NCBI GenBank assembly: GCA_965116335.1
Contig: OZ220677.1
Coordinates: forward strand, 16,834 to 80,833
DNA: 64,000 nucleotides
Direction: 5' to 3'
Source of the DNA: Arenicellales bacterium
Lineage (GTDB): Bacteria; Pseudomonadota; Gammaproteobacteria; Arenicellales; Poriferihabitantaceae
The translations under genes and the position numbers were made by a program. Each line of letters opens with the position of its first letter. Within the stretch, counting starts at the first letter, position 1. Positions 1-12,788 of the stretch are shown here, piece after piece. The notes beneath the pieces are model-generated. The model was not told where the DNA came from and searched no databases. It worked only from the letters and a program-made list of their open reading frames with translations.

Positions 1-3000
1 GCCGCCGACCCGCAGCTGACCATTGTCGCGGGCGAAACCAAGAGTTCCGGTGTAGTTGCTATCCAGGCGCTGGACAATAGCGAGGATGATGCGATTGACA
101 ACCGGCCGGTGCGCCTGTCGGCGACGGCCAGTGGCGGGCGTGGCATTGCGGACCCCGCCGAGGTTACGCTGACAATCCAGGATGATGACAAGGCGGGCGT
201 GAATTTCTCTGAAAACACGATTGAGGTGGAGAAGGATGAAACCACGGTCATCCAGGTACGCCTGACCTCACAGCCGACTATGGATACCACGGTAACGCTA
301 ACCAGTAGCGATCCGAACGTGGCCGAGTTGAGCGCCAGTCCGCGTGGACGCAGTGTGCAACTGCTATTCACTCCACAGAACTGGAACGTGCCGCAATCGG
401 TCACCGTTCACGGTATCGAGGACGGTGATCTGTCGATTGAGACCCATATTCAAAGCGCCGACCCGATGTATGCCAATGCGCCACCGCCGCCGCCCTTGCA
501 GACCAATGTTATTGGTGTGCCGACACTGACCCTGACGGCCAGCGAAGACTACATAGATGAAGGCGCGGCGGCGACGTTTACGATTGCGGCAGACCGGGTA
601 TCGCCGATTGATGTGCCGGTGCGGATTGATGTGGGCTACGGTTGCTGCATCGGCGTAGGAGAAGTCCTGGCCGAGGGCCAGAAAGGCATGCGAACGGTTA
701 TCCTGCCTCAGGGACGAACATGGGTCCGATTCGAGGTGCAGACTGCTGACGATGAGGTTATTCATGGCGAGGGTATCAAACGCGGCAACAAGTCGATTAC
801 TGCACAGATTGTCGAGAGCGATGCCTACCAGATCTCCCACACAGGCAATGATGCGCTGGCGCGTTTCATGTATTACGATTCCGTGATGGTGAGCGAAAAT
901 GATTCGGTGCCGCCCGCGGACATTGTGGTTTCTGTCTCTGGCCCGGAGCGGGTGATGGAGGGTGACACTGCGCAGTTCACCTTCACGGCATCGAAAGCGC
1001 CCCTGAACGATCTGAAGATCAGCTTTTTCCTGGATTTGTTTGGTGACTTCAATACCAACCCCGTTTATACCTTCGACCCGAATGTGATGAGTGGTCTTGA
1101 AAAAGATTTCGTGACCCTGCCAGCCGGAGCGCTGCAAACCACGTACAGCCTCACCATCCGGGATGATGATCGTACTCAGGGTCACGGCAGGATGTTGGTC
1201 AGAGTCACGGGCGGCTCCATGAAGTCCGTCGATGGTATCATCCATCGCAGTTATAGCATTGCGGGTCATCTCGACCGCGAGGTAAGGTTCGATGTTATTG
1301 ACGATGAAACCTCACCCTCTGTTGAGTCCCAGGCTTCGCCCCAGGAATCGCCGCAGCAGGCAGAGCAGGCAGAGCAGGATGAACAGGAAGAGGATGGACA
1401 GGAGACGGCGAGGGCGCTGGCCGTAGCGGCTTGTGTGTCTGATGAACTCATAGAGAGGGGCGAGGACTATTATCAGGCAAACCGCAACAAGGCATCGAAC
1501 TACGGGTCAAACTGGTTCAGTGTTCTGGTTGCGTTTGATCAGCGGACGCCGTCAGACTGGACTACTGACAGTCGCAGCATTGAACCGATGACTGCTGCCT
1601 CGTCTCGCGAGCGGGAGAGTAGCTGGCGCGGGTGGCGTCCCTTTACCAAGGCGCTGGAATGTGTGGAGACGGCAATAGCAGAAGCTGAAGTAGAGGCAGA
1701 GGCAGAAGCGCAAGCCGAGGCCGGGGCGCAAGCCGAACAACAGCCAGAACAACAGCCAGAAGCAGAAGCGCAACCGGCGCAGGTACAGGATGGACAGGTC
1801 GAGGTGCAGACTGAGCAGACCGAGGTAGAAGTACAGGCCGAAGTACAGCCAGAACCAGAACAGACACCCCCACCCACTCCTGCAATCCGTCTGTCGGCGG
1901 GTTCTGCTGTAGACGAGGGCGAGAGTGCTGAATTTATCCTGACCGCTGATCCGGCGCCGCTTGACGATCTGGTGATTACTTATGCGGTGGAGCAGACAGG
2001 CGATTACCTGGCTGATCCCGGAGTCGGGCAACGTACCATCACCCTGGCGGCAGAAGCGACCACTATGGTGCTTTCTGTAGACACAGTAGACGATGAAATG
2101 GACGAACCGGATGGTTCGGTGAGTGTCACGCTGGCTACCGGCGCTGGCTATACACTGACTACCCGGCAGAGCCGTACCGTGACCGTGAATGATAATGATG
2201 TGATGCCGCCTCCGGTGCTGTCGATTCGCGATGCCACCTTGCATGAAAACCAGGGCGGTGGATACTTTACCGTGACCATAGAGGAGCCAGCAGACTGGCC
2301 GGTACGTTTCCACTATGCGACCCGCGATTCCTCTCCGGTATCCGCGAGAGCCGATCAGGACTATCAGGCGCATGATCGTTCAGCACGGATGCAAAGCCAA
2401 TTCGAGCCTGGAGAGACCGAGATGAAACTCTATATCGAGATCTACGATGACAGTCATGATGAGAACGCTGAAACCTTCGAGATCGAACTGTTCGATGCGG
2501 ACGTAGGCAGTATGCCCGATGTGCCGGTATTGATTCCAGACGGTATAGCGGTTGGCACCATTGTCGATGATGATCAGATGCCCGCTGCCTGGTTGGCGCG
2601 TTTCGGTCGCAGTGTTGCCCAACAGGCGCTGGATGGTATTACAGATCGCATTGAGGCGCCGCGCACGGCGGGAACCGAAAGCACATTTGCCGGTATTTCC
2701 ACTCAATCTTCCGGTCTGGATCAAGACCTGCCGGGGCAATCCGATGTCGTGCAGCGATTCGGTGTGGGTAATGACACGTATGGTTTTGGCACCGACGGTA
2801 TGGAGAATGGTGGCGAACCGCAGTATCGTTCCATGACAATGTCCGATGCCTTGATGGGTGTTTCCTTTACGACCACCAGCCAGAAGGATGCCAGTGGTGG
2901 CAGTGTAGCCTTCTGGGGACGTACTGCCCAATCCAGCTTCAATGGCAACGAAGACAACCTCTCGCTGGATGGTGAGATCACCTCTGCCCTGCTTGGCATG

Positions 3001-4065
3001 GACTATGCCAGAGACAACTGGATGGGCGGCGTGACTCTGATGCAAAGCAGTGGCAAAGGCGGTTATACCGATTCTGGTGTATCGTCCAGCTGCCCGCAAG
3101 AGGATAGCACGCCATGCGCTGGCGGCGCATCGGCGGGTGCGGGTACACTGGAGTCTTCATTGACCGCACTGATCCCTTATACCTCCATGCAAGTATCGGA
3201 TCGTATGCAATGGTGGGGTGCCCTGGGTCATGGTATTGGCGAGGTTGATCTGAAACCCGGAGCGGGCGATTCACTGACCTCTGATATTTCCTGGAATATG
3301 GCGGCTATTGGACTGCGCGGAGACCTGATTCAAGCGCAGGCAGGGCAGGGTCTTTCTTTAGCCCTGACTTCCGATGCACTATGGACCCGAACGGCATCAG
3401 AGCAGACACAAGAACTGGCGGCATCCGATTCAGACACTATGCGCTTGCGGTTGGGTCTGGAAGGCAGTTGGGCGTTTGAACTGAAAGATGGCGGTCAGTT
3501 GACGCCGAAGCTCGAGATGGGATTACGACAGGATGGTGGAGATGCGGAGACCGGTGGTGGCGTAGAGATTGGAGGAGGTATTTCCTGGTTGAATCCGGGA
3601 CTTGGACTTTCCCTTGATCTATCTGGACGGACGTTGGTTTCGCATGACGACGAAGGGTTGGAGGATCGGGGTTATGCGGCCTCACTGGAATTTGATCCGG
3701 ACCCATCCAGTGAGCGCAGTCCGTCCTTGACCTTGCGCCAGGATTGGGGGAATTCTTCCGGTGGTGGATTGGATGCGATGTTCACATCAAGCCCGCTCAC
3801 ACAATCAGGCGGAGGGAGTCAGGAGAGTCGCTGGACGGCGGAGGCGGCCTGGGGCTTCCCGGCATTGGGTGGACGCTTCACGGGGAGTCCTCATGCCGGT
3901 CTTGGTTTTTCTGGTGACAGTCGGGATTTCACGGTGGGTTGGCGTTTGAAGCCTGATTCCGAGGATGCGCCGAACCTTTCTCTGGGCGTACAGGCCACCC
4001 GGCGCGAGAATGGCGCAGACACCCCGCAGCACAGCGCCGGATTCGAAATGAGCATCCGATGGTAG
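1..4065 (+). CDS. Large Calx-beta repeat surface protein with C-terminal autotransporter-like beta-barrel (5' partial; frame open from base 1)
   Basis: Frame 1 reads AADPQLTIVAG... without a stop into the 109..4065 ORF. Repeated Calx-beta-like motifs (VTLTIQDDD, VRFDVIDDE, VTVNDND, AVGTIVDDD), then WLARFGRSVA leading into a Gly/aromatic-rich barrel-like region ending FEMSIRW. Confidence 0.8.
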   Translation, partial: AADPQLTIVAGETKSSGVVAIQALDNSEDDAIDNRPVRLSATASGGRGIADPAEVTLTIQDDDKAGVNFSENTIEVEKDETTVIQVRLTSQPTMDTTVTLTSSDPNVAELSASPRGRSVQLLFTPQNWNVPQSVTVHGIEDGDLSIETHIQSADPMYANAPPPPPLQTNVIGVPTLTLTASEDYIDEGAAATFTIAADRVSPIDVPVRIDVGYGCCIGVGEVLAEGQKGMRTVILPQGRTWVRFEVQTADDEVIHGEGIKRGNKSITAQIVESDAYQISHTGNDALARFMYYDSVMVSENDSVPPADIVVSVSGPERVMEGDTAQFTFTASKAPLNDLKISFFLDLFGDFNTNPVYTFDPNVMSGLEKDFVTLPAGALQTTYSLTIRDDDRTQGHGRMLVRVTGGSMKSVDGIIHRSYSIAGHLDREVRFDVIDDETSPSVESQASPQESPQQAEQAEQDEQEEDGQETARALAVAACVSDELIERGEDYYQANRNKASNYGSNWFSVLVAFDQRTPSDWTTDSRSIEPMTAASSRERESSWRGWRPFTKALECVETAIAEAEVEAEAEAQAEAGAQAEQQPEQQPEAEAQPAQVQDGQVEVQTEQTEVEVQAEVQPEPEQTPPPTPAIRLSAGSAVDEGESAEFILTADPAPLDDLVITYAVEQTGDYLADPGVGQRTITLAAEATTMVLSVDTVDDEMDEPDGSVSVTLATGAGYTLTTRQSRTVTVNDNDVMPPPVLSIRDATLHENQGGGYFTVTIEEPADWPVRFHYATRDSSPVSARADQDYQAHDRSARMQSQFEPGETEMKLYIEIYDDSHDENAETFEIELFDADVGSMPDVPVLIPDGIAVGTIVDDDQMPAAWLARFGRSVAQQALDGITDRIEAPRTAGTESTFAGISTQSSGLDQDLPGQSDVVQRFGVGNDTYGFGTDGMENGGEPQYRSMTMSDALMGVSFTTTSQKDASGGSVAFWGRTAQSSFNGNEDNLSLDGEITSALLGMDYARDNWMGGVTLMQSSGKGGYTDSGVSSSCPQEDSTPCAGGASAGAGTLESSLTALIPYTSMQVSDRMQWWGALGHGIGEVDLKPGAGDSLTSDISWNMAAIGLRGDLIQAQAGQGLSLALTSDALWTRTASEQTQELAASDSDTMRLRLGLEGSWAFELKDGGQLTPKLEMGLRQDGGDAETGGGVEIGGGISWLNPGLGLSLDLSGRTLVSHDDEGLEDRGYAASLEFDPDPSSERSPSLTLRQDWGNSSGGGLDAMFTSSPLTQSGGGSQESRWTAEAAWGFPALGGRFTGSPHAGLGFSGDSRDFTVGWRLKPDSEDAPNLSLGVQATRRENGADTPQHSAGFEMSIRW

Positions 4066-4221
4066 GGGGAGCGGGTGGGGGGAATGATGTTGGCGTGTGG
4101 ATCGGAATGATCTCGTAGGGGAGGGTCTCTGTGCCCTCCCGCGAATGATCGGACGGGTATCAACGGTAGCGGACACCCACAGAGGGGCGTGGGCAGGCTC
4201 TACGCATCGGTAATTGCGGGA
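4064..4221. repeat. REP-like (GTAG-type) palindromic repeat mosaic
   Basis: Modules ggggagcgggtggggggaatgatg, cgtaggggagggtctctgtgccctcccgc and gcggacacccacagagggg recur at many intergenic sites in the window. Confidence 0.8.
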
Positions 4222-4228
4222 AGTGGTC

Positions 4229-4257
4229 TTGCGGTGTGTGGCGTGGCGCGTTACAAT
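4229..4257 (+). promoter_or_regulatory. Putative sigma70 promoter of higBA, positioned for a leaderless transcript
   Basis: TTGCGG (4229-4234), 17 bp, TACAAT (4252-4257); ATG follows 5 nt later with no Shine-Dalgarno. Confidence 0.6.
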
Positions 4258-4262
4258 TCGGT

Positions 4263-4535
4263 ATGAAGATCAGGCACAAGGGATTGCGGGCACTGCACGA
4301 GAGGGATAATTCCGCGCGGGTGCCTGCCGATCTGGCGCCACGGCTCAAGCGCATCCTGTTCCGGCTGCAAGATGCAACGCATCCGCGAAGTGCAGACGCG
4401 CCGGGCTTCCGGCTGCACTCCCTGAAGGGCGACCGTGCGGGCTGGTGGAGCGTTCGCGTATCCGGCAACTGGCGCGTGGTATTCCGCTTTGAGGACGGAG
4501 AGGCCGTGGACGTGGACCTGATTGACTATCACTGA
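4263..4535 (+). CDS. higB: HigB (RelE/ParE superfamily) toxin
   Basis: MKIRHKGLRALHE...FRLHSLKGDRAGWWSVRVSGNWRVVFRFEDGEAVDVDLIDYH is the typical HigB signature; ATG at 4263. Confidence 0.92.
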   Translation: MKIRHKGLRALHERDNSARVPADLAPRLKRILFRLQDATHPRSADAPGFRLHSLKGDRAGWWSVRVSGNWRVVFRFEDGEAVDVDLIDYH

Positions 4536-4554
4536 CCGAAGGGGAGTGTTGACC

Positions 4555-4869
4555 ATGAACGACATCGCAAACGAGCGCGTCGGCCCGATGCGAAACCCGC
4601 CGCATCTGGGCGAACTGATCCGCGAGAGTATGGACGATGTGGGCTGGAGCGTGACCGAAACGGCGGCGCGTCTCGGCTGTGAGCGCGGTACGTTATCGCG
4701 CCTGTTGAACGGCAAGGCGGGCGTGTCGGCGACTATGGCGCTGGCGTTGGAGGACATCGGCTGGGGCACCGCCGAGCACTGGATGCGGATGCAGGCGAGC
4801 TACGAGCTCGCGCAGGCGCGGCACGACCGGACGGCTTCGAATCGGCGCATGCGGGCGCTACACGCATGA
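4555..4869 (+). CDS. higA: HigA HTH antitoxin
   Basis: NPPHLGELIRE...SVTETAARLG...LSRLLNGKAGVSATMALAL...WMRMQASYEL; directly downstream of higB. Confidence 0.92.
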   Translation: MNDIANERVGPMRNPPHLGELIRESMDDVGWSVTETAARLGCERGTLSRLLNGKAGVSATMALALEDIGWGTAEHWMRMQASYELAQARHDRTASNRRMRALHA

Positions 4870-4884
4870 TCAAGGCTCGCGCCG

Positions 4885-5143
4885 TTTCGACGGTTTCGGG
4901 AGGGTACAAGACCCTCCCCTACGATGACAGGTAACCGCAACCGTATTGTTATGGATTCCCGCATCTGCGGGAATGACGGGTGGTTGGGGCATGTTCCGGC
5001 GGTTGTGTCCCCCCATCCAATCCGCAAGCGGATTGGATTCCCCCTCAAGGGGGGAATGATTTGGACGGTTCACTCCAACCTTGAGGGGGAATCCGCGATA
5101 CAAGGGCGCAAGCCCGCCGGGGAGCGGGTGGGGGGAATGATGT
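4885..5143. repeat. REP/BIME-like mosaic
   Basis: gggagggtacaagaccctcccctacg, ggattcccgcatctgcgggaatgacg, atccaatccgcaagcgattggat and ccccctcaaggggggaatga modules. Confidence 0.85.
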
Positions 5144-5265
5144 GATGATGAGCGTGATTGTTCTGATAAAAGAAGCAGGGTATTATAGGGATATGAATAA
5201 TTCATTTGTTGTTGAAAACTACAGGCTTTTCTGCTTGAAATTTCGGCCAAATTATCCAAAGCCAG

Positions 5266-5577
5266 ATGCACACTGTAATCGCTGACAAGAAAGGGAAACT
5301 GGCAGAGATCTGCCAACGTTACGATGTTGTACGGCTTGAGGTTTTCGGATCAGCGGCACGCGGCACAGATTTCGACCTGGCCAAAAGTGACGCAGATTTT
5401 CTTGTTGAGTTTAACCCTCATAGCAATCTGTCACCTCTTGAACAGTTCTTCGGCCTTGTCGATGCGCTGAGCAACACATTGGAACGCCCCGTGGACCTGG
5501 TCGAAAATCACACATTTCGCAACCCGTATCTGAGTACATCCATCAACGAATCCCGCGAAGTTATTTATGCGTCGTGA
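5266..5577 (+). CDS. mntA: Minimal nucleotidyltransferase (MNT) antitoxin
   Basis: LEVFGSAARG...SDADFLVEF (GS-x-DxD Pol-beta NTase motif), RPVDLV; overlaps a DUF86 gene. Confidence 0.88.
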   Translation: MHTVIADKKGKLAEICQRYDVVRLEVFGSAARGTDFDLAKSDADFLVEFNPHSNLSPLEQFFGLVDALSNTLERPVDLVENHTFRNPYLSTSINESREVIYAS

Positions 5578-5923
5578 CGCTCGTGTCCTTCTGACCGATA
5601 TCAAGCAGGCAAGCGCCGACATTCAATCGTTCACCGACGGCATGGATAGCGCCGCCTACTCCGCTGATTCACTGACCCAAGCTGCGGTCGAACGCAAGTT
5701 CGAAATCATCGGCGAAGCGGTAAATCGTCTGCACATCAACCATCCCAACCTCGCCACAAGAATTCCCGAAATGCGTCGCATCATTGATTTTCGGAACTAT
5801 CTGGCTCATGGCTATGATCACGTAGCACCGAGACTCGTCTGGCTTTATGCTACCAGCAGCCTGTTGGAACTGAACGATGCGGTTCAGATGCTGCTTACCG
5901 AGATGGAAACACCTGACGAATGA
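5567..5923 (+). CDS. hepT: HEPN / DUF86 RNase toxin
   Basis: AVERKFEIIGEA...RRIIDFRNYLAHGYDHV (RxxxxH HEPN motif). Confidence 0.88.
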   Translation: MRRDARVLLTDIKQASADIQSFTDGMDSAAYSADSLTQAAVERKFEIIGEAVNRLHINHPNLATRIPEMRRIIDFRNYLAHGYDHVAPRLVWLYATSSLLELNDAVQMLLTEMETPDE

Positions 5924-6049
5924 ATGACAAGCGCACGAACTATATGGTCTCCTGATCGAAATAGTCTTCGTCAATCGCTCCCGCAAAATTACGCAGGTCA
6001 CCTGCACCTACAGTGTTGCCGTCAGCATACCTCTTCGCTTGGACATAGC

Positions 6050-6088
6050 GGTTGTGTCCCCCCATCCAATCCGCAAACGGATTGGATT
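6050..6088. repeat. Left part of a REP-like element interrupted by IS3
   Basis: gttgtgtccccccatccaatccgcaaacggattggatt normally continues ccccctcaaggggggaatga, which appears after the IS at 7339. Confidence 0.85.
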
Positions 6089-6148
6089 TGAACTGTACTG
6101 AGAAAGGTGGACACACTAGAATGGGGATAGAATCCTTGGAGGTGTCTG

Positions 6149-6445
6149 ATGCGGAAAAGAAATATTTACAGTAAAGAGTTCAAATTAGAAGCTCTTCGTC
6201 AATGGAAGCAGGAAGGTCAGTCTGCTACGGCTTTGGCGAAGAGTTTAGGTTTGCGTCCGAACATGCTATACAAATGGGAGGATCAGTTGAGTCGTCATGG
6301 TCGGCAGGCGTTTTTGGGTTCGGGTCGCCAGCCGGTAGTTTTGACGGATGAACTGTCTCGTCTCAAGCAGGAGTTGTCGGATGTCAAGATGGAGCGTGAT
6401 ATTCTAAAAAAGGCGGCGGCGTACTTTGCTCGAGAGCTGAAGTGA
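6149..6445 (+). CDS. IS3 transposase OrfA (HTH)
   Basis: YSKEFKLEAL...LYKW...ELSRLKQELSDVKMERDILKKAAAYFARE. Confidence 0.92.
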   Translation: MRKRNIYSKEFKLEALRQWKQEGQSATALAKSLGLRPNMLYKWEDQLSRHGRQAFLGSGRQPVVLTDELSRLKQELSDVKMERDILKKAAAYFARELK

Positions 6446-7305
6446 AGTACGCTTTTATTGAACGGTATCGTGGTTGTTTTCCGGTGGTTTGCATGTGTCG
6501 TGTGATTCGAGTGAGTCGTTCGGGTTATTATGCGTGGCGGAGTCGGGGTGCGAGCGCGGGGAGTTTATTTCGGCGCAATCTTTTAGTTGAGATTCGGCGG
6601 GTACATCAGCAGTTTCAGGGTCGTTATGGTGCGCTCAAGTGTTGGCGTCATTTGCGTCGGGAAGGGATTGCTTGCGGTCGGGATCAGGTCGTCAAGTTAC
6701 GGAGTTTGCACGGCATATTCAGTCAGCGCCGTCATCGTTTTGTGGTTACTACCCGCTCTAGGCCGAGTGATCGGGCGGCGGCGAATCAACTCAATCGTGT
6801 ATTTTATGCGAGTGCTCCGAATCGGGTCTGGGTGGGGGACGTGACGTTTATTGAAACCCGCCAGGGTTGGTTATATCTGGCCGTATTACTGGATCTCTAT
6901 TCGCGCAAGGTGGTGGGCTGGTCCATGGCCAATCGCAATGATACCTCTTTGGTCAAAGCCTGTTTGGACATGGCGGTTGCACATCGCCAACCTGCGCCTG
7001 GTCTCATTCATCATACAGACCGCGGAGCGACCTACACTTCTGAACTCTATCGTTATGCGCTGAACTGTAAGGGAATCATCGCATCCATGAGTCGAACAGG
7101 AGATTGTTGGGATAATGCAGTCGCGGAAAGCTTCTTTGGTCAACTGAAAAACGAATGGGCCTGGCAGCAGGGCCGTCCGAATCGGGAACAGGCCAGAGCG
7201 AGTCTGTTCGAATATATCGAATTGTTTTACAATCGACAAAGACTCCACCAGACTTTGGGTTATATCTCACCCGTGGAGTATGAAAGCAATCAATGTGTTT
7301 CTTAA
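6442..7305 (+). CDS. IS3 transposase OrfB (DDE integrase core)
   Basis: WVGDVTFI, LIHHTDRG, CWDNAVAESFF, YIELFYNRQRLHQTLGYISP; in the -1 frame relative to OrfA. Confidence 0.93.
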   Translation: MKYAFIERYRGCFPVVCMCRVIRVSRSGYYAWRSRGASAGSLFRRNLLVEIRRVHQQFQGRYGALKCWRHLRREGIACGRDQVVKLRSLHGIFSQRRHRFVVTTRSRPSDRAAANQLNRVFYASAPNRVWVGDVTFIETRQGWLYLAVLLDLYSRKVVGWSMANRNDTSLVKACLDMAVAHRQPAPGLIHHTDRGATYTSELYRYALNCKGIIASMSRTGDCWDNAVAESFFGQLKNEWAWQQGRPNREQARASLFEYIELFYNRQRLHQTLGYISPVEYESNQCVS

Positions 7306-7971: not shown

Positions 7972-8009
7972 AAAAACCCTTGACAAGGGTTTTTGCGTTT
8001 TCTGACAAT
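7972..8009 (+). promoter_or_regulatory. Putative promoter of the collagen operon with palindromic operator over the -35
   Basis: Perfect 11-bp inverted repeat AAAAACCCTTG-A-CAAGGGTTTTT (7972-7994) containing TTGACA (7980-7985); weak -10-like GACAAT at 8004-8009 (18-bp spacer). Confidence 0.55.
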
Positions 8010-8012
8010 ATT

Positions 8013-8066
<54 letters not shown>

Positions 8067-8367: not shown

Positions 8368-9714
8368 ATGAAGAAATCGAGAAAAAGCTCAAGGCAGGCG
8401 GCGCAGGTCCGCCGTGATCTGCCGGAATTGCCGGTGAAACGGCGAAACTGGTATGGCCCGGTATCGGTCGGAGCCACTTCGTTGATGCTGGCAGGCGCCG
8501 CGGGGATGGCATCGGTCGCAGGGTTCTACTCGACTGAGGTACAGGCGCAGGAAATGCCGGGCCCACCGGGTCCACAGGGGCCGCCGGGACCAACGGGACC
8601 GCAGGGAGAACCCGGTCCAGCCGGGCCGCCGGGAGCAGATCAAGAACAGGGGGCTACGGGCCCACAGGGGCCGCCGGGAATGGACGGTCCGCCGGGCCCG
8701 CCGGGCCCGCCGGGAATAGACGGCTCACCGGGAGCACGCGGCCCGGCAGGTCAACCGGGCCCGGTTGGTCCGGCTGGCAATCCAGGGCCACCTGGAGACC
8801 CGGGACCATCGGGACCTACCGGCCCGCAGGGCGACCCAGGTAATACGGGGGCCACCGGTCCAGTCGGGGCGCGGGGAGATACTGGTCCAACTGGAGACCC
8901 GGGGCCATCAGGCCCTCCCGGCTCGCAGGGGCCGCCTGGATCGGATGGTGATCCGGGACCGATGGGACCGCCGGGAAGCTCTAGTGCAGGCCCTCCCGGC
9001 CCACCGGGACCGCGGGGATTAAAGGGTGATACAGGCCCATCGGGAACAGGTGGCCCTCCCGGCTCGCAGGGGAGTCTGGGTCCTCCCGGCCCTCCCGGCC
9101 CGACGGGTCCACCGGGAGACACTAACATGGGACCATCGGGCCCTCCCGGCCCGCAGGGGCCGCCTGGATCGGATGGTGATACCGGTCCGCCGGGACCGGC
9201 AGGTACTGCCGGAGCGGGCAGTAGCCAGCCGGGACCACCCGGCCCATCCGGGCCGCCGGGACCGCCGGGAGACAGCAGTACATCCAGCGTTCCCGGTCCG
9301 CCGGGCCCACCGGGACCGCCCGGCCCGCCGGGGCCACCCGGCGCTCCGGAGGGCTGGGTTGTGAATCAGGAGAGGCGTATTGATACGATCGTGCAGGGGG
9401 TCAACGAGCACGGTCAGCGCATCCGCTCGCTACAGTTGTCGTTCGATACGTTGCGAGACGAGTCGAATGAGGGCACGGCCATTGCCATTGCGCTCGGTGG
9501 GATACAGATCCCCTATAACAAGGAGAGCGCTTTCTCGTTGCGGCTGGGTCATTATCGATCCGGCAACGCGGTTGCGGCTGCCGGCGCTTTCCGTCTGCCG
9601 CCCGGCGCCCTGCGTCTGCCGGAGGATGCCAGCGCCGTGGTGGATGTCGGGGTGGCACATGGCTTCGAGTATTCACAGACTGGCGCGACCGCAGGTATTA
9701 CCTGGGGCTGGTAG
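8368..9714 (+). CDS. Collagen-like trimeric autotransporter adhesin 1 (Gly-X-Y passenger, coiled-coil, YadA-type anchor)
   Basis: Extended leader ending VQA-Q; ~82 Gly-X-Y triplets (8560-9348, hand count); heptad stalk ([25 protein letters not shown]); anchor-like [10 protein letters not shown]...[19 protein letters not shown]...[10 protein letters not shown]. Confidence 0.88.
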
Positions 9715-9734
9715 GACAGGACAGGAAAGCGGTC

Positions 9735-11105
9735 ATGCACAAGAAACCAGACAAGCTCGCCCAAAGCGGCGCGCCGGGTAGTGAGGACGCGCCGAATCTG
9801 CTGGCGAGGAGACGCAACTGGTATGGGCCGGTATCGGTCGGGGCTACTTCGCTGATGCTGGCAGGCGCCGCGGGGATGGCATCGGTCGGGGGGTTCTATT
9901 CGACCGACGTACAGGCGCAGGCGGGGCCACCGGGGCTGACGGGACCGCCGGGACCACCGGGGTCAGCAGGTCCGCCGGGAGAGCCGGGGCCGGATGGGCC
10001 AGCAGGAATGCGCTTTGGAGATTCAGCACCGGGTAATCCGGGACCGCCCGGCCCAGATAGCACAGTAGCCGGTCCGCCGGGTCCGCCGGGGCTGCCGGGA
10101 CCGTCAGGCCCATCAGGTCCCGTAGGATACGACGGAGCACCGGGGATGCGGGGGCCAGCCGGAGCAGCCGGACCAGCCAGTACGACAGCAGGGCCGCCGG
10201 GATCAAAGGGATCAAAGGGACCACAGGGTGATCATGGGGCGCGAGGGGGGGCGGGGTCAACCGGTTCCAAGGGTAATCCGGGACCGCCAGGACCGCCGGG
10301 TGACCCGGGTGCTCCCGGAACGGATGGGGCAACAGGGCCGCAGGGAGCATCAGGCCCACCCGGATCGGGTGGCAGCAACCCAGGGCCGCCGGGTATGACA
10401 GGGCAGAAGGGTGCAACGGGTGACCGGGGATTTACCGGCCCGCCGGGGCCATCGGGGCCATCGGGAATCCAGGGACCGCCGGGGTTACAGGGTTCAGCCG
10501 GTCCACCCGGACCGGGTGGTAGTAACCCAGGCCCGCCGGGGCCGCCGGGGCCAGCAGGTCAATCCGGGATTCAGGGCCCGCCGGGGTTACAGGGCCCACC
10601 GGGCACGGCTGGCATTGGAGCGGGACCGGCAGGACCACCCGGCCCGGCGGGGCCAAAGGGCACCCCCGGAGAGGTCACTGTTCAACCGGGTCCGTCGGGC
10701 CCTCCCGGCCCGCCGGGACCACCGGGGGCGTTGCGTCTGCCGGAGGGTTGGCTTACGCATCAGGAAAAACGCGTGGATGAGGCGTTCAGTGAGGTCACTC
10801 GACACGGTCAGCAAATCCGCTCGCTGGAGTTATCGTTCAATGAGTTACGCGCCGAATCGCGGGAGGAAACCGCTATCTCCATTGCGCTGGGTGGTCTGCG
10901 TATCCCTTATGACAAGGATCGAGCCTTTGGGGTGCGATTGGGTCATTATGAGTCCAGTAATGCCGTTGCGGCTGCCGGAGCTTTCCGTTTGTCCAAAGCT
11001 TTTCTGCTGCCGGAGAAATTCCGCGCCGAAGTGAATATCGGTAGCGCCTATGGGTTCGATTATTCGCAGGCTCGTGTGAGCGCCGGTATTACCTGGAGAT
11101 GGTAG
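9735..11105 (+). CDS. Collagen-like trimeric autotransporter adhesin 2 (paralog)
   Basis: Leader nearly identical to paralog 1 ([35 protein letters not shown]); Gly-X-Y region 9924-10730; stalk; anchor [10 protein letters not shown]...[18 protein letters not shown]...SAGITWRW. Confidence 0.88.
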
Positions 11106-11713
11106 AGGCGGTATTGCCACTTCAGCGGCAGCAAAGCGCACAGACCTCCGGGTCGTGTCCTGAAGCGCTGTGGCGAAACAGCCCGATGCTGCCGTTGGTC
11201 AGTGAGGGTGAATTCCTGTCGCCCGCGCAGTGCGCTATCCTGTCGGAGTTTCTGGAGGCGAATGTACGGCGTCTGGGGCGGGAGAATGTGGAACCGTTCT
11301 TTTCCTGGCGGCAGATCAATTACGCCCAGGTCGATAACTCCCGTGTACGGAAAATCATGGACGACGTGCGCTGTCGCATCGCCATGATCCTGTCGGATGG
11401 ATTGCACGGCAGTACCGTGTACCCGGAATATACCGATCTGGTGCTATGGCGGGAAGGCCAGAATATGAATGTCCATCGGGACGACCTGCCGCCACATTTC
11501 GAGCATCGGCTGTATTCCAGCATCCTGTACTTGACCTCGTGTCACGGCGGCGCCACTGTTTTCCCGACTGTCGGCATTGAAGTGCCTCCACAAGCGGGGC
11601 GGATGATTGCTTATCCATCTGGCCTGCCGCACGGTGTGCGTCCGGTGGTGGCGGGCAAGCGACACACGCTGGCCTCTTGGTATACCGGGTTGATAGATAA
11701 ACGGGAAGCGTAA
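11099..11713 (+). CDS. 2OG-Fe(II) dioxygenase, prolyl-hydroxylase-like (start may be ATG 11186)
   Basis: HxD (VHRD), YSSILYL...GGATVFP...[12 protein letters not shown], distal His (PHGVRPV), 2OG-binding R (KRHTLASWY); no signal peptide; ATG overlaps the upstream stop region. Confidence 0.85.
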
Positions 11714-12303
11714 TGCGTAGTGAATGGGCTTATTATGACTCGCTGATTAGCGCGGAGGAATGTCAGGCGATCATCGACGACGCATTGCAGCGGGAGGTTG
11801 CGCTTGGCACGGTCGGGCTGGATGGCACTGAAATCAATCCGGGCATCCGTCACGGCGAGGTCATCTTCCTGCCGAGACGCGACCCGGCGTTCGTGCATGT
11901 TTTTCAGTTGATTGATTACTGCGTGGATGAGGCGAATGATGAATGGTTCGGAGTGGACTATAACCGACAGGGCGCGCGCAGCCTGCAATTCAGCATCTAT
12001 CGGGGGGAGGATAGTGAAGACGGGGGGCATTATTACCATGCCCATCAGGACACGGTGCTGGTCAGTGGCGACCGTCCAACCCAGCGTAAGCTGAGCGTCA
12101 CCGTGCAGCTGTCGGACCCGGATGACTACGAGGGGGGCGATTTCAAGATGCATTATGTGTCTGCCCAGCCGCCCGCCGATGCCCTGCGCCGACGTGGCAC
12201 GGTACTGGTTTTCCCGTCTCTGGTGATGCACGAGGTGTCGCGTGTGACTCGTGGCACTCGCTATTCCCTGGTCGGCTGGTATCCGGGGCCGGGATGGCGA
12301 TAG
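11713..12303 (+). CDS. 2OG-Fe(II) dioxygenase, P4Hc/PKHD-type
   Basis: YHAHQD (HxD), RKLSVTVQLSDPDDYEGGDF, GTVLVFPSLVMHEVSRVTRGTRYSLVGW; TAATG stop-start coupling with the upstream gene. Confidence 0.88.
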   Translation: MRSEWAYYDSLISAEECQAIIDDALQREVALGTVGLDGTEINPGIRHGEVIFLPRRDPAFVHVFQLIDYCVDEANDEWFGVDYNRQGARSLQFSIYRGEDSEDGGHYYHAHQDTVLVSGDRPTQRKLSVTVQLSDPDDYEGGDFKMHYVSAQPPADALRRRGTVLVFPSLVMHEVSRVTRGTRYSLVGWYPGPGWR

Positions 12304-12326
12304 AATTTGAGAGGCTTGAACCGGCC

Positions 12327-12788
12327 ATGATTCGCACAAACAAGCCGGTTCGTTCGCCGGATAACTGGAATGTGGTTCTGCATGATCGTTATATCAAGGA
12401 TCTGTCGTTCGAGAATCCGGGCGCCCCGGTTGTGCCGCACAAGGACGAGCTGCATCTCAATGTGTCGGTGCGGGTAGACAGTCGGCATCATAGCGCCGAG
12501 GCGGGCAATGAGTTTCATGAGGTGACGTTGACGGTTGAGGTGACCGGCCACCATCATTCGCGGACTGTGTTTCTGGTCGAGCTGATGTATGCGGGTTTGT
12601 TTGAACTCACCGGGCTTGAGGAGGAGCCGCGTCAACGTTTCCTGTTGTGTGAGGCTCCCCGTATGCTGTTTCCCTGGGTCAATCGCATATTTGCAGACCT
12701 GACACGGGATGGCGGCTTGCCCACGCTGAATCTGTCGCCACCGGATTTCGTGACTCGTTATGAGGAGGTGGTGGAGGGGGAGAAATAG
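12327..12788 (+). CDS. secB: SecB protein-export chaperone (alternative start 12294)
   Basis: YIKDLSFENPGAP...EVTLTV...VFLVELMYAGLF...LLCEAPRMLFPW...LTRDGGLPTLNLSPPDF matches the SecB signature. Confidence 0.88.
   Translation: MIRTNKPVRSPDNWNVVLHDRYIKDLSFENPGAPVVPHKDELHLNVSVRVDSRHHSAEAGNEFHEVTLTVEVTGHHHSRTVFLVELMYAGLFELTGLEEEPRQRFLLCEAPRMLFPWVNRIFADLTRDGGLPTLNLSPPDFVTRYEEVVEGEK

Follow-up and report, generated by a model that had tools for sequence, protein, structure and literature searches.

Streptococcus Scl1 and Scl2, Bacillus BclA and Legionella Lcl display surface Gly-X-Y rods that form a triple helix without the animal machinery (PMC8968730). In bacterial collagens proline takes 19% of the X positions and threonine 31.6% of the Y positions (PMC8968730), and bacteria are said to lack prolyl hydroxylase and to compensate with threonine or charged residues (PMC8968730; PMC11923368, a 2025 paper). 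Collagen repeats have also been described in the passenger of a type Vc autotransporter, VtaA of Glaesserella (Haemophilus) parasuis (PMC6755704). Here we analyse a stretch of 64,000 nucleotides (hereafter the window) from contig OZ220677.1 of an Arenicellales bacterium, in which an operon encodes two collagen-like adhesins (adhesin 1 and adhesin 2), two 2-oxoglutarate (2OG)-Fe(II) oxygenases (P4Ha and P4Hb) and a paralogue of the chaperone SecB (Table 1). The explanation that accounts best for the locus as a whole, and which we favour somewhat above even chances, is that the adhesin chains are hydroxylated on proline, held by SecB, exported by the type Vc route and zippered from the C- to the N-terminus into a rod resembling the host matrix. 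If so, bacteria may make hydroxylated collagen of the animal type.

The composition of the two collagen regions was determined by mechanical counting. In adhesin 1, GPP makes up 28 of the 82 triplets (34%), with proline at X in 50 (61%) and at Y in 37 (45%); the corresponding values for adhesin 2 are 23 of 83 (28%), 41 (49%) and 31 (37%). A first-pass annotation of the same DNA had counted about 82 triplets, 28 GPP and about 37 Y-position prolines in adhesin 1 and about 23 GPP in adhesin 2, all of which were reproduced. The breaks are QEQ, SA, NM, SSQP and STSSVP in adhesin 1 and FGDSAP, STVA, STTA, P, P, A and TVQP in adhesin 2; every break listed earlier was found again, although FGDSAP and the three single-residue breaks of adhesin 2 had been missed. 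The longest break-free runs are 37 triplets in adhesin 1 and 21 in adhesin 2. The collagen of adhesin 1 ends in (GPP)5-GAP and that of adhesin 2 in GPS-(GPP)3-GAL, and thus the count also bears out the terminal (GPP)5 and (GPP)3 blocks that had been placed beside the stalk. GPP is more frequent than expected from independent X-Pro and Y-Pro frequencies in both proteins (28 versus 22.6, P=0.012, for adhesin 1; 23 versus 15.3, P=0.0006, for adhesin 2). The within-protein significance of the terminal block is weak (P=0.016 and P=0.21 respectively); of 14 family members, 12 have the block in this position.

The (GPP)5 of adhesin 1 is written by five different 9-mers and its 28 GPP triplets by 13, showing that the pattern is maintained at the level of the protein and did not arise as a recent slippage array; this synonymous codon diversity rules out replication slippage as the source of (GPP)5. 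High genomic GC was likewise ruled out as the cause of the composition, the window being 49–58% GC outside the 8–12 kb stretch of the operon. The two adhesins are about 66% identical at the N-terminus and about 59% at the C-terminus. Adhesin 1 contains an RGD at window positions 8872–8880 (residues 169–171), inside GARGDTG; it may serve in cell binding or as a stabilising salt-bridge triplet. Two orthologues keep the motif A(R/K)GD(T/D)G, there as KGD, making a salt-bridge triplet at least as likely as an integrin motif (PMC11923368).

As a baseline for the Y-position proline, a DNA pattern neutral to X/Y composition, (GGNNNNNNN)x14, was scanned over viral and metagenome contigs, 120 loci were kept from each and every open reading frame (ORF) with a run of at least 14 triplets was scored (140 viral and 135 metagenome, 275 ORFs). 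The viral ORFs had a median Y-Pro of 1.3% (95th percentile 22%, top GPP fraction 0.26) and the metagenome ORFs a median of 1.5% (95th percentile 32%, top GPP fraction 0.27). The Y-Pro level of the adhesins was found to lie beyond the normal range of bacterial collagens, as had been proposed: 45% was attained by 5 of the 275 ORFs (1.8%) and 37% by 9 (3.3%), and a GPP fraction of 0.28 was attained by none of them. Among the 125 baseline ORFs with at least 40 triplets, the sole one with Y-Pro of 0.36 or more was L045, a high-GC phage tail-fibre-like gene. Several short ORFs with high Y-Pro came from L148, which is probably animal DNA because it has few ORFs and exon-like collagen pieces. A simple link between high Y-Pro and a linked hydroxylase in the baseline was dropped, as Y-Pro was not high in the five baseline loci with genes like P4Hb or like lysyl hydroxylase (LH) (median 4% versus 1%, P=0.2).

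The comparison with animals gave a mixed result. Human fibrillar collagen has 31.1% X-Pro and 33.5% Y-Pro/Hyp, and non-fibrillar collagen 42.2% Y-Pro/Hyp (PMC8968730); the 37–45% of the adhesin passengers is at or above these published values. The earlier claim of an animal-like composition was thus upheld for the level of Y-Pro and not for GPP, which at 28–34% overshoots the animal pattern. GPP accounts for roughly 10% of the triplets in animal fibrillar collagen, and at about three times that level the adhesin sequence is more (GPP)n-like than truly animal-like. The type I collagen alpha1 chain carries a C-terminal (GPP)5, and the analogy drawn with it appears mechanistically apt. Short interruptions, which had been read as a further animal feature, are indeed present, but they are not diagnostic of animals because they are common in collagens of all domains (PMC11923368).

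Both adhesins appear to have the layout of passenger, stalk and anchor. Their signal peptide consists of a basic stretch, RRNWYGPV, a hydrophobic core and VQA followed by Q, and is kept in the paralogue and in the orthologues. The collagen starts 2–4 residues past it, leading the mature N-terminus straight into Gly-X-Y. Pfam gave Collagen alone (PF01391, cut-off 27.2 bits) for both proteins, with E 2e-35 and 120.6 bits for adhesin 1 and E 1e-29 and 102.6 bits for adhesin 2, and no head domain or adhesive module was found in either passenger. A head is usual in trimeric autotransporter adhesins, yet it is not required for this type of secretion. After PEGW, approximately 35 residues (PEGW...SLQLSFDxLR) align with the stalk–anchor junction of YadA and NadA, and the C-terminal ~65 residues finish in GITWGW or GITWRW. 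A profile of 13 family anchors matched the whole YadA anchor 2lme end to end (E 2e-4), as well as the NadA junction and Hia, and the 2lme match reached E 7e-5 when one more distant member was added; PF03895 was matched at E<=1 by 12 of 15 members of the anchor alignment. These alignments are in line with the layout given in the first-pass annotation. We read both proteins, from their sequence features, as probable headless trimeric autotransporters (type Vc) whose passenger is a collagen rod, estimated at ~70 nm for 246 residues at 0.286 nm each.

We then consider the two oxygenases. Among solved sequences P4Ha comes closest to human prolyl 3-hydroxylase 1 (P3H1; E 3.8e-7), and a P4Ha profile that includes the LH-like protein of locus L002 also reached Bacillus anthracis prolyl 4-hydroxylase (P4H; E 1e-6). 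The AlphaFold2 (AF2) model of P4Ha (pLDDT 91) gave the viral collagen prolyl hydroxylase of PBCV-1 as its best fold match (TM 0.76), followed by Pseudomonas putida and B. anthracis P4H, P3H1 and human C-P4H-II, with 5c5t, 3itq, 8k0m and 7zsc as the top structure entries. P4Hb is nearest in sequence to the PKHD-type hydroxylases PiuC and Sbal_3634 (E 2e-7); its AF2 model (pLDDT 93) best matched P. putida prolyl 4-hydroxylase 4iw3 (TM 0.76), and further matches were HIF PHD2 and the algal P4H 3gze. All of the best structural matches of both models are therefore prolyl hydroxylases. The HxD...H iron triad and the 2OG-binding arginine are kept in both enzymes, and are invariant in P4Ha as His97, Asp99, His149 and Arg159 (29 sequences) and in P4Hb as His111, Asp113, His173 and Arg183 (44 sequences). 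No more than 31 residues align between the two, indicating that they are not recent duplicates. Both lack a hydrophobic leader at the N-terminus, which in each model belongs to the fold, suggesting that the enzymes are cytoplasmic. An alternative ATG of P4Ha at 11099 overlaps the stop codon of adhesin 2.

The close P4Ha clade is tiny. A word-indexed search returned 35 proteins among 5.8 billion, and an exhaustive search gave 8 representative clusters at E<=1e-30, with a wider family of 456 at E<=1e-10. Some remote relatives of P4Ha (P0276, P0285, P0195, P0211 and P0230) carry a fused domain, which is either DUF6065 or a GlcNAc-transferase domain (PF11397). The SecB paralogue scored 113.5 bits against the PF02556 cut-off of 26 but fell below the cut-offs of all seven NCBIfam SecB equivalogs (best 122.8 versus 143), and it was found in all 12 related loci, always alongside the collagen operon. 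To judge from these scores, the operon SecB is a specialised, divergent paralogue and not the housekeeping equivalog.

The same gene set recurs elsewhere. No exact match to the sequence of adhesin 1 was found in public assemblies, and a protein search with the stalk and anchor returned 11 short fragments alone, because gene callers miss the collagen part; the contigs of these fragments carry the same gene order. Public gene calls give the anchors as proteins of 85–138 residues, with the collagen part uncalled or called separately (L001 300–1726; L003 1433–3263; L002 4797–10258), and in L003 an antisense ORF of 295 residues is called across the collagen region. Since gene calls split or miss these genes, the family is nearly invisible in protein databases, and the analysis thus exposes an annotation blind spot in which public calls reduce the adhesins to anchor fragments or antisense ORFs. 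By tblastn, adhesin(s), P4Ha, P4Hb and SecB were mapped in this order at nine further distinct loci (L001/L006, L002, L003, L004, L005, L007, L008, L009 and L010), and L253 and L255, the latter with a rearranged gene order, bring the other distinct loci to 11. The genes flanking the operon differ between loci and genomes, and nearly all of the 11 are labelled as sponge-associated bacteria (metagenome-assembled genomes, MAGs, or contigs). A genome scan with the P4Hb alignment found nine loci in species-representative genomes: two in Candidatus Poriferihabitaceae (Arenicellales), one in Candidatus Porisulfidus, five in Gammaproteobacteria MAGs and one in a Rhodospirillales MAG. Candidatus Poriferihabitaceae and Candidatus Porisulfidus are both mentioned in sponge genome notes. 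With 94% identity, the closest P4Ha comes from an 'IrcVar' contig of JGI sample 3300003251, which is taken from its name to be an Ircinia variabilis sponge metagenome; downstream of the operon, this contig shows synteny with the window.

The unusual composition is conserved along with the genes. In the 12 readable P4Ha-linked adhesins, Y-Pro is 37–51% and GPP 17–42% over 18 to 829 triplets, and all 12 have 2–5 consecutive GPP within the last few triplets ahead of the stalk. Orthologues keep the number and kind of breaks, for example QEQ/SA/NM/SSQP/STSSVP against QVE/TS/NT/SIQP/SAQS, which argues that the interruptions are designed features. Two of the loci carry giant adhesins, L010 1349–9313 (2655 residues, 829 triplets) and L002 4145–10255 (2037 residues, 580 triplets), whose triplets are mostly split by single-Pro breaks.

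Four loci hold two extra genes (L002 10280–15445; L011 7952–9990; L012 3–725; L255 2666–9511). The product of one is a 2OG oxygenase, for which matches were obtained to Mimivirus L230 (E 1e-9) and, at E 2e-11, to the human LH3 domain for lysyl hydroxylation. The other is a fused transferase: its N-terminal half matches human procollagen galactosyltransferase 1 (COLGALT1; E 5e-21), and its C-terminal half was matched by Mimivirus R699 and by the glucosyltransferase domain of LH3 (E 1e-42). With these enzymes added in the variant operons, the cluster family looks like a collagen-modification toolkit. An FGE-sulfatase-like gene lies near the variant operon in L002 and L255. L011 is the sole locus with no P4Ha within 20 kb. 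Its two adhesins have 0–7% GPP, no terminal GPP block and 21–31% Y-Lys, and they adjoin the LH-like gene and the glycosyltransferase. This one case fits a division of labour in which P4Ha would go with GPP-rich sequence, and the LH-like enzyme and transferase with Y-position lysine. In viral contig L097 (1113–5153), LH-like and glycosyltransferase-like genes stand beside a collagen with 24% Y-Lys.

Table 1. Features of the collagen-adhesin operon and of its upstream region, in window coordinates
Feature	Position	Strand	Description
Promoter-like site	7980..8009	+	TTGACA-18-GACAAT, 10/12 consensus matches; upstream of adhesin 1; consensus match alone
(GCCA)13 repeat	8014..8066		TRF, 13.2 perfect copies; between promoter-like site and adhesin 1
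Adhesin 1 gene	8368..9714	+	448-aa intact ORF; signal peptide, collagen rod, coiled-coil stalk, YadA-type anchor
Adhesin 1 extended signal peptide	8368..8547	+	aa 1-60; RRNWYxPV motif, hydrophobic core, predicted cleavage site between VQA and QE
Adhesin 1 collagen region	8560..9348	+	82 Gly-X-Y triplets, 6 segments
Adhesin 1 terminal (GPP)5 block	9295..9339	+	adjoins stalk; proposed triple-helix nucleation site; kept in orthologues
Adhesin 1 stalk and anchor	9349..9714	+	~35-aa coiled coil from PEGW; four-strand beta anchor, end GITWGW
Adhesin 2 gene	9735..11105	+	456-aa intact ORF; paralogue of adhesin 1
Adhesin 2 collagen region	9924..10733	+	83 triplets, 8 segments, 5 Lys at Y
Adhesin 2 terminal (GPP)3 block	10698..10724	+	adjoins stalk
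Adhesin 2 stalk and YadA-type anchor	10734..11105	+	PF03895 E 0.016, 15.7 bits; in family anchor alignments
P4Ha	11186..11713	+	175-aa 2OG-Fe(II) oxygenase, collagen prolyl-hydroxylase type; PF13640 E 1.4e-11
P4Hb	11713..12303	+	196-aa 2OG-Fe(II) oxygenase, PHD/PKHD type; PF13640 E 6.9e-15; start overlaps P4Ha stop
SecB paralogue	12294..12788	+	164 aa; PF02556 E 9.5e-33; 10-nt overlap with P4Hb end

Upstream of adhesin 1, the (GCCA)13 repeat begins 5 nt past the promoter-like −10 box and ~300 nt from the gene, and it is the sole repeat with at least six copies in the window. In L002 an (AGCGGCC)16 tract (3950–4061) lies directly upstream of the giant collagen gene; the other ten related loci have no such tract. 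A phase-variation repeat tract is known upstream of nadA, and by analogy both tracts may be of this kind. Further upstream of the operon, window positions 109–7305 encode a Calx-beta-domain protein of 1318 residues, an MNT/HepT toxin–antitoxin pair (5266–5923) and an IS3-family transposase (6149–7305).

The pathway that we propose for these genes would start in the cytoplasm, where the chains would be made and, while still unfolded, hydroxylated on proline by two unrelated enzymes, P4Ha (collagen-P4H/P3H type) and P4Hb (PHD type); animal P4H likewise needs unfolded chains (PMC8968730). The target of P4Ha would most likely be the Y-position proline of X-Pro-Gly, and it is the genomic linkage of substrate and oxygenases that argues for hydroxylation at this site. 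The SecB paralogue would keep the chains monomeric and export-competent, blocking early trimerisation through the coiled coil and (GPP)n. Once past the Sec system, the chains would trimerise in the outer membrane by their YadA-type anchor and the passenger would come out with its C-terminus first, an order of emergence established for type Vc secretion. The coiled-coil stalk would then register the three chains and (GPP)3–5 would nucleate the helix, with zippering toward the N-terminus across the conserved breaks, which is the accepted direction for collagen (PMC11923368). The product would be a host-matrix-like rod, probably bearing hydroxyproline, on the surface of the sponge symbiont, through which the cell would adhere to the collagen-rich mesohyl, resemble the host matrix, or both.

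Several observations weigh against this pathway. The YadA anchor model PF03895 gives 12.6 bits for adhesin 1 and 15.7 for adhesin 2, under its cut-off of 22.7. Unhydroxylated (GPP)n is already triple-helical at sea temperatures, so hydroxylation is not required, and we know of no documented precedent for cytoplasmic hydroxylation ahead of Sec export; hydroxyproline in the adhesins is a prediction from the genes alone. Among characterised enzymes, those most closely related to P4Hb have EF-Tu or HIF as substrate, or no assigned one. In viral contigs L098 (6079–7519) and L071 (683–8634), P4Hb-like genes stand beside collagens with 62–71% X-Pro and almost no Y-Pro, which gives a lead, and we rate it as a lead only, that P4Hb may act on X-Pro or on another position or target. 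The phage collagens L045 and L131 reach a comparable Y-Pro, and a Pfam search of both stretches found no hydroxylase. Finally, a phage-like contig of 81 kb (L254) carries a P4Ha/P4Hb pair (10001–11081, about 50% identity) that immediately follows large tail-fibre-like genes, and no collagen was found in the surrounding 20 kb. An Acb2/Tad1-like gene lies downstream of that pair.

Much of this evidence also speaks for the rival that fares best, namely that the rods are real but unhydroxylated, the Pro-rich sequence itself stabilising the helix, and that the oxygenases act on a translation factor (the case of Pseudomonas PPHD), on a different adhesin residue or on a small molecule. The grouping of P4Hb with PHD/PiuC-type enzymes, the oxygenase pair of L254 away from any collagen, the P4Hb-like genes next to Y-Pro-free viral collagens and the high Y-Pro of L045 and L131 without a hydroxylase found by Pfam are all in line with it. 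However, the close P4Ha clade is tiny; P4Ha adjoins a collagen adhesin in the bacterial loci examined, despite unrelated flanks; and its fold is nearest to the collagen prolyl hydroxylases. Moreover, the locus that lacks P4Ha (L011) also lacks GPP-rich collagen, and sister operons hold unmistakable homologues of collagen lysyl hydroxylase and glycosyltransferase. We therefore regard an unhydroxylated rod as rather unlikely, though it is a rival to be taken seriously.

A second rival accepts the hydroxylated rod and gives it another role, as a protective nap, a spacer or a cell–cell matrix comparable with the BclA layer of the Bacillus exosporium, which could for instance keep phages out or serve as a scaffold for aggregation. 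In its favour, neither a head domain nor a recognised binding module occurs in the passenger, and rod length spans ~45-fold among relatives (18 to 829 triplets); on/off switching, typical of surface structures that face phage or immune pressure, is suggested by the simple-sequence repeat upstream, and a phage (L254) carries the modifying enzymes. Against this stand the finding of the family in sponge-labelled DNA only and a composition that has converged with that of animal collagen and not with the bacterial, Thr-rich one. In addition, the collagen repeats of VtaA2 contribute to collagen binding (PMC6755704). A role of this other kind seems to us distinctly improbable. Recent capture of the collagen segment from the animal host and its grafting onto a bacterial autotransporter, judged here by codon usage and domain content because matches of low-complexity, Gly-Pro-rich sequence tell of composition and not of ancestry, can practically be dismissed: animal-level Y-Pro, a sponge symbiont as the organism and the IS3 transposase and toxin–antitoxin pair directly upstream would suit it, but the collagen has the codon use of the rest of the window (CCG as the main Pro codon, GC3 0.56 versus 0.61) and begins right after a bacterial signal peptide, Pfam finds the Collagen family alone with no animal C-propeptide or other non-collagenous domain, GPP at 28–34% is far above animal collagen, and the design is common to diverged lineages with anchors 43–71% identical.

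The host-matrix-like, hydroxylated rod remains our preferred explanation. A broader claim, which we put forward tentatively and would not expect to hold in full, is that sponge symbionts run a complete animal-type collagen pathway, with hydroxylation of Y-position and perhaps X-position proline, an anti-folding chaperone, C-terminal nucleation and display as a matrix that is host-like or host-binding, to which sister lineages would add lysine hydroxylation and Glc-Gal glycosylation. What the operon offers is X-Pro-Gly at animal frequency, as would suit an animal P4H as substrate, together with two enzymes of the prolyl-hydroxylase fold and a chaperone. As substrate, enzymes and chaperone are co-encoded, cloning three or four genes is now enough to test whether bacteria make hydroxylated collagen. 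Were the proposal true, it would overturn the textbook view that bacteria lack collagen prolyl hydroxylation and give a compact bacterial route to hydroxylated recombinant collagen, as well as a specific candidate molecule by which sponge symbionts may cling to a host rich in collagen or conceal themselves in it. It would also supply new data on the origin of the animal collagen-modification enzymes, with a possible evolutionary source or sink and a bacterial model.

Compared with described bacterial systems, the locus shares parts with each. VtaA has its collagen centrally among YadA-like head and neck repeats, whereas the whole passenger of the window adhesins is collagen and headless, and neither linked hydroxylases nor SecB have been reported for VtaA; the collagen binding of VtaA2 is nevertheless the sole experimental parallel for the proposed function (PMC6755704). 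Scl1/Scl2, BclA and Lcl differ in their LPXTG, exosporium or other anchoring, in having threonine or charged residues instead of proline at Y, and in loci without a dedicated hydroxylase pair. The NCBIfam Scl1/Scl2 and Lcl models scored 113.7 versus 325, 69.6 versus 400 and 73.6 versus 500 bits against the window proteins, with matches confined to the repeats. B. anthracis P4H, a structural and profile match to P4Ha, is bacterial and hydroxylates (Pro-Pro-Gly)n in vitro (PMC8968730), but it is only ~20% identical to P4Ha, has no proven natural collagen substrate and shares no operon with one. Iyer et al. (2010) described bacterial secreted Gly-rich collagen-like proteins encoded together with 2OG dioxygenases and predicted to be hydroxylated (PMC2938197). 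Those dioxygenases, however, are of the aspartyl beta-hydroxylase, phytanoyl-CoA hydroxylase and JmjC types and occur with sulfotransferases, and the carrier proteins are others, with no autotransporter or SecB (PMC2938197).

The likeness to metazoan collagen biosynthesis (C-P4H, P3H1, LH3/PLOD and COLGALT1) extends over Y-Pro of 37–45%, a C-terminal (GPP)n beside a trimerising domain and enzymes of the prolyl-hydroxylase fold that presumably act on unfolded chains, with homologues of lysyl hydroxylase and Gal/Glc transferase in sister operons. In contrast, Pfam found no fibrillar C-propeptide (COLFI) in the window adhesins, and fibrillar collagen has ~338 uninterrupted triplets against 82–83 with 5–7 breaks here. 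The window oxygenases are small, single-domain proteins that are 14–24% identical to the eukaryotic ones, and modification takes place in the animal endoplasmic reticulum with Hsp47/PDI, whereas it is proposed here for the cytoplasm with SecB in that place. On sequence evidence, then, the adhesins resemble fibrillar collagen in composition and in what appears to be a C-terminal nucleation design, and are not members of it. Giant viruses (PBCV-1 with vCPH; Mimivirus with L230 and R699) likewise have non-animal collagen-like proteins with hydroxylases and glycosyltransferases of their own; vCPH is the best structural match of P4Ha, and L230 and R699 match the variant-operon enzymes. Theirs are, however, capsid fibres of viruses that infect eukaryotes and not products of an operon on a bacterial chromosome that includes SecB and provides an anchor in the outer membrane. 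In the literature searched we found no description of an all-collagen passenger with animal-level Y-Pro and a conserved terminal (GPP)n that comes with a SecB of its own and two enzymes of the prolyl-hydroxylase fold and is confined to sponge-associated bacteria. Its elements are precedented, in the collagen repeats of autotransporters, a bacterial P4H active on PPG, the modified collagen of viruses and the dioxygenase-linked collagen predicted in bacteria.

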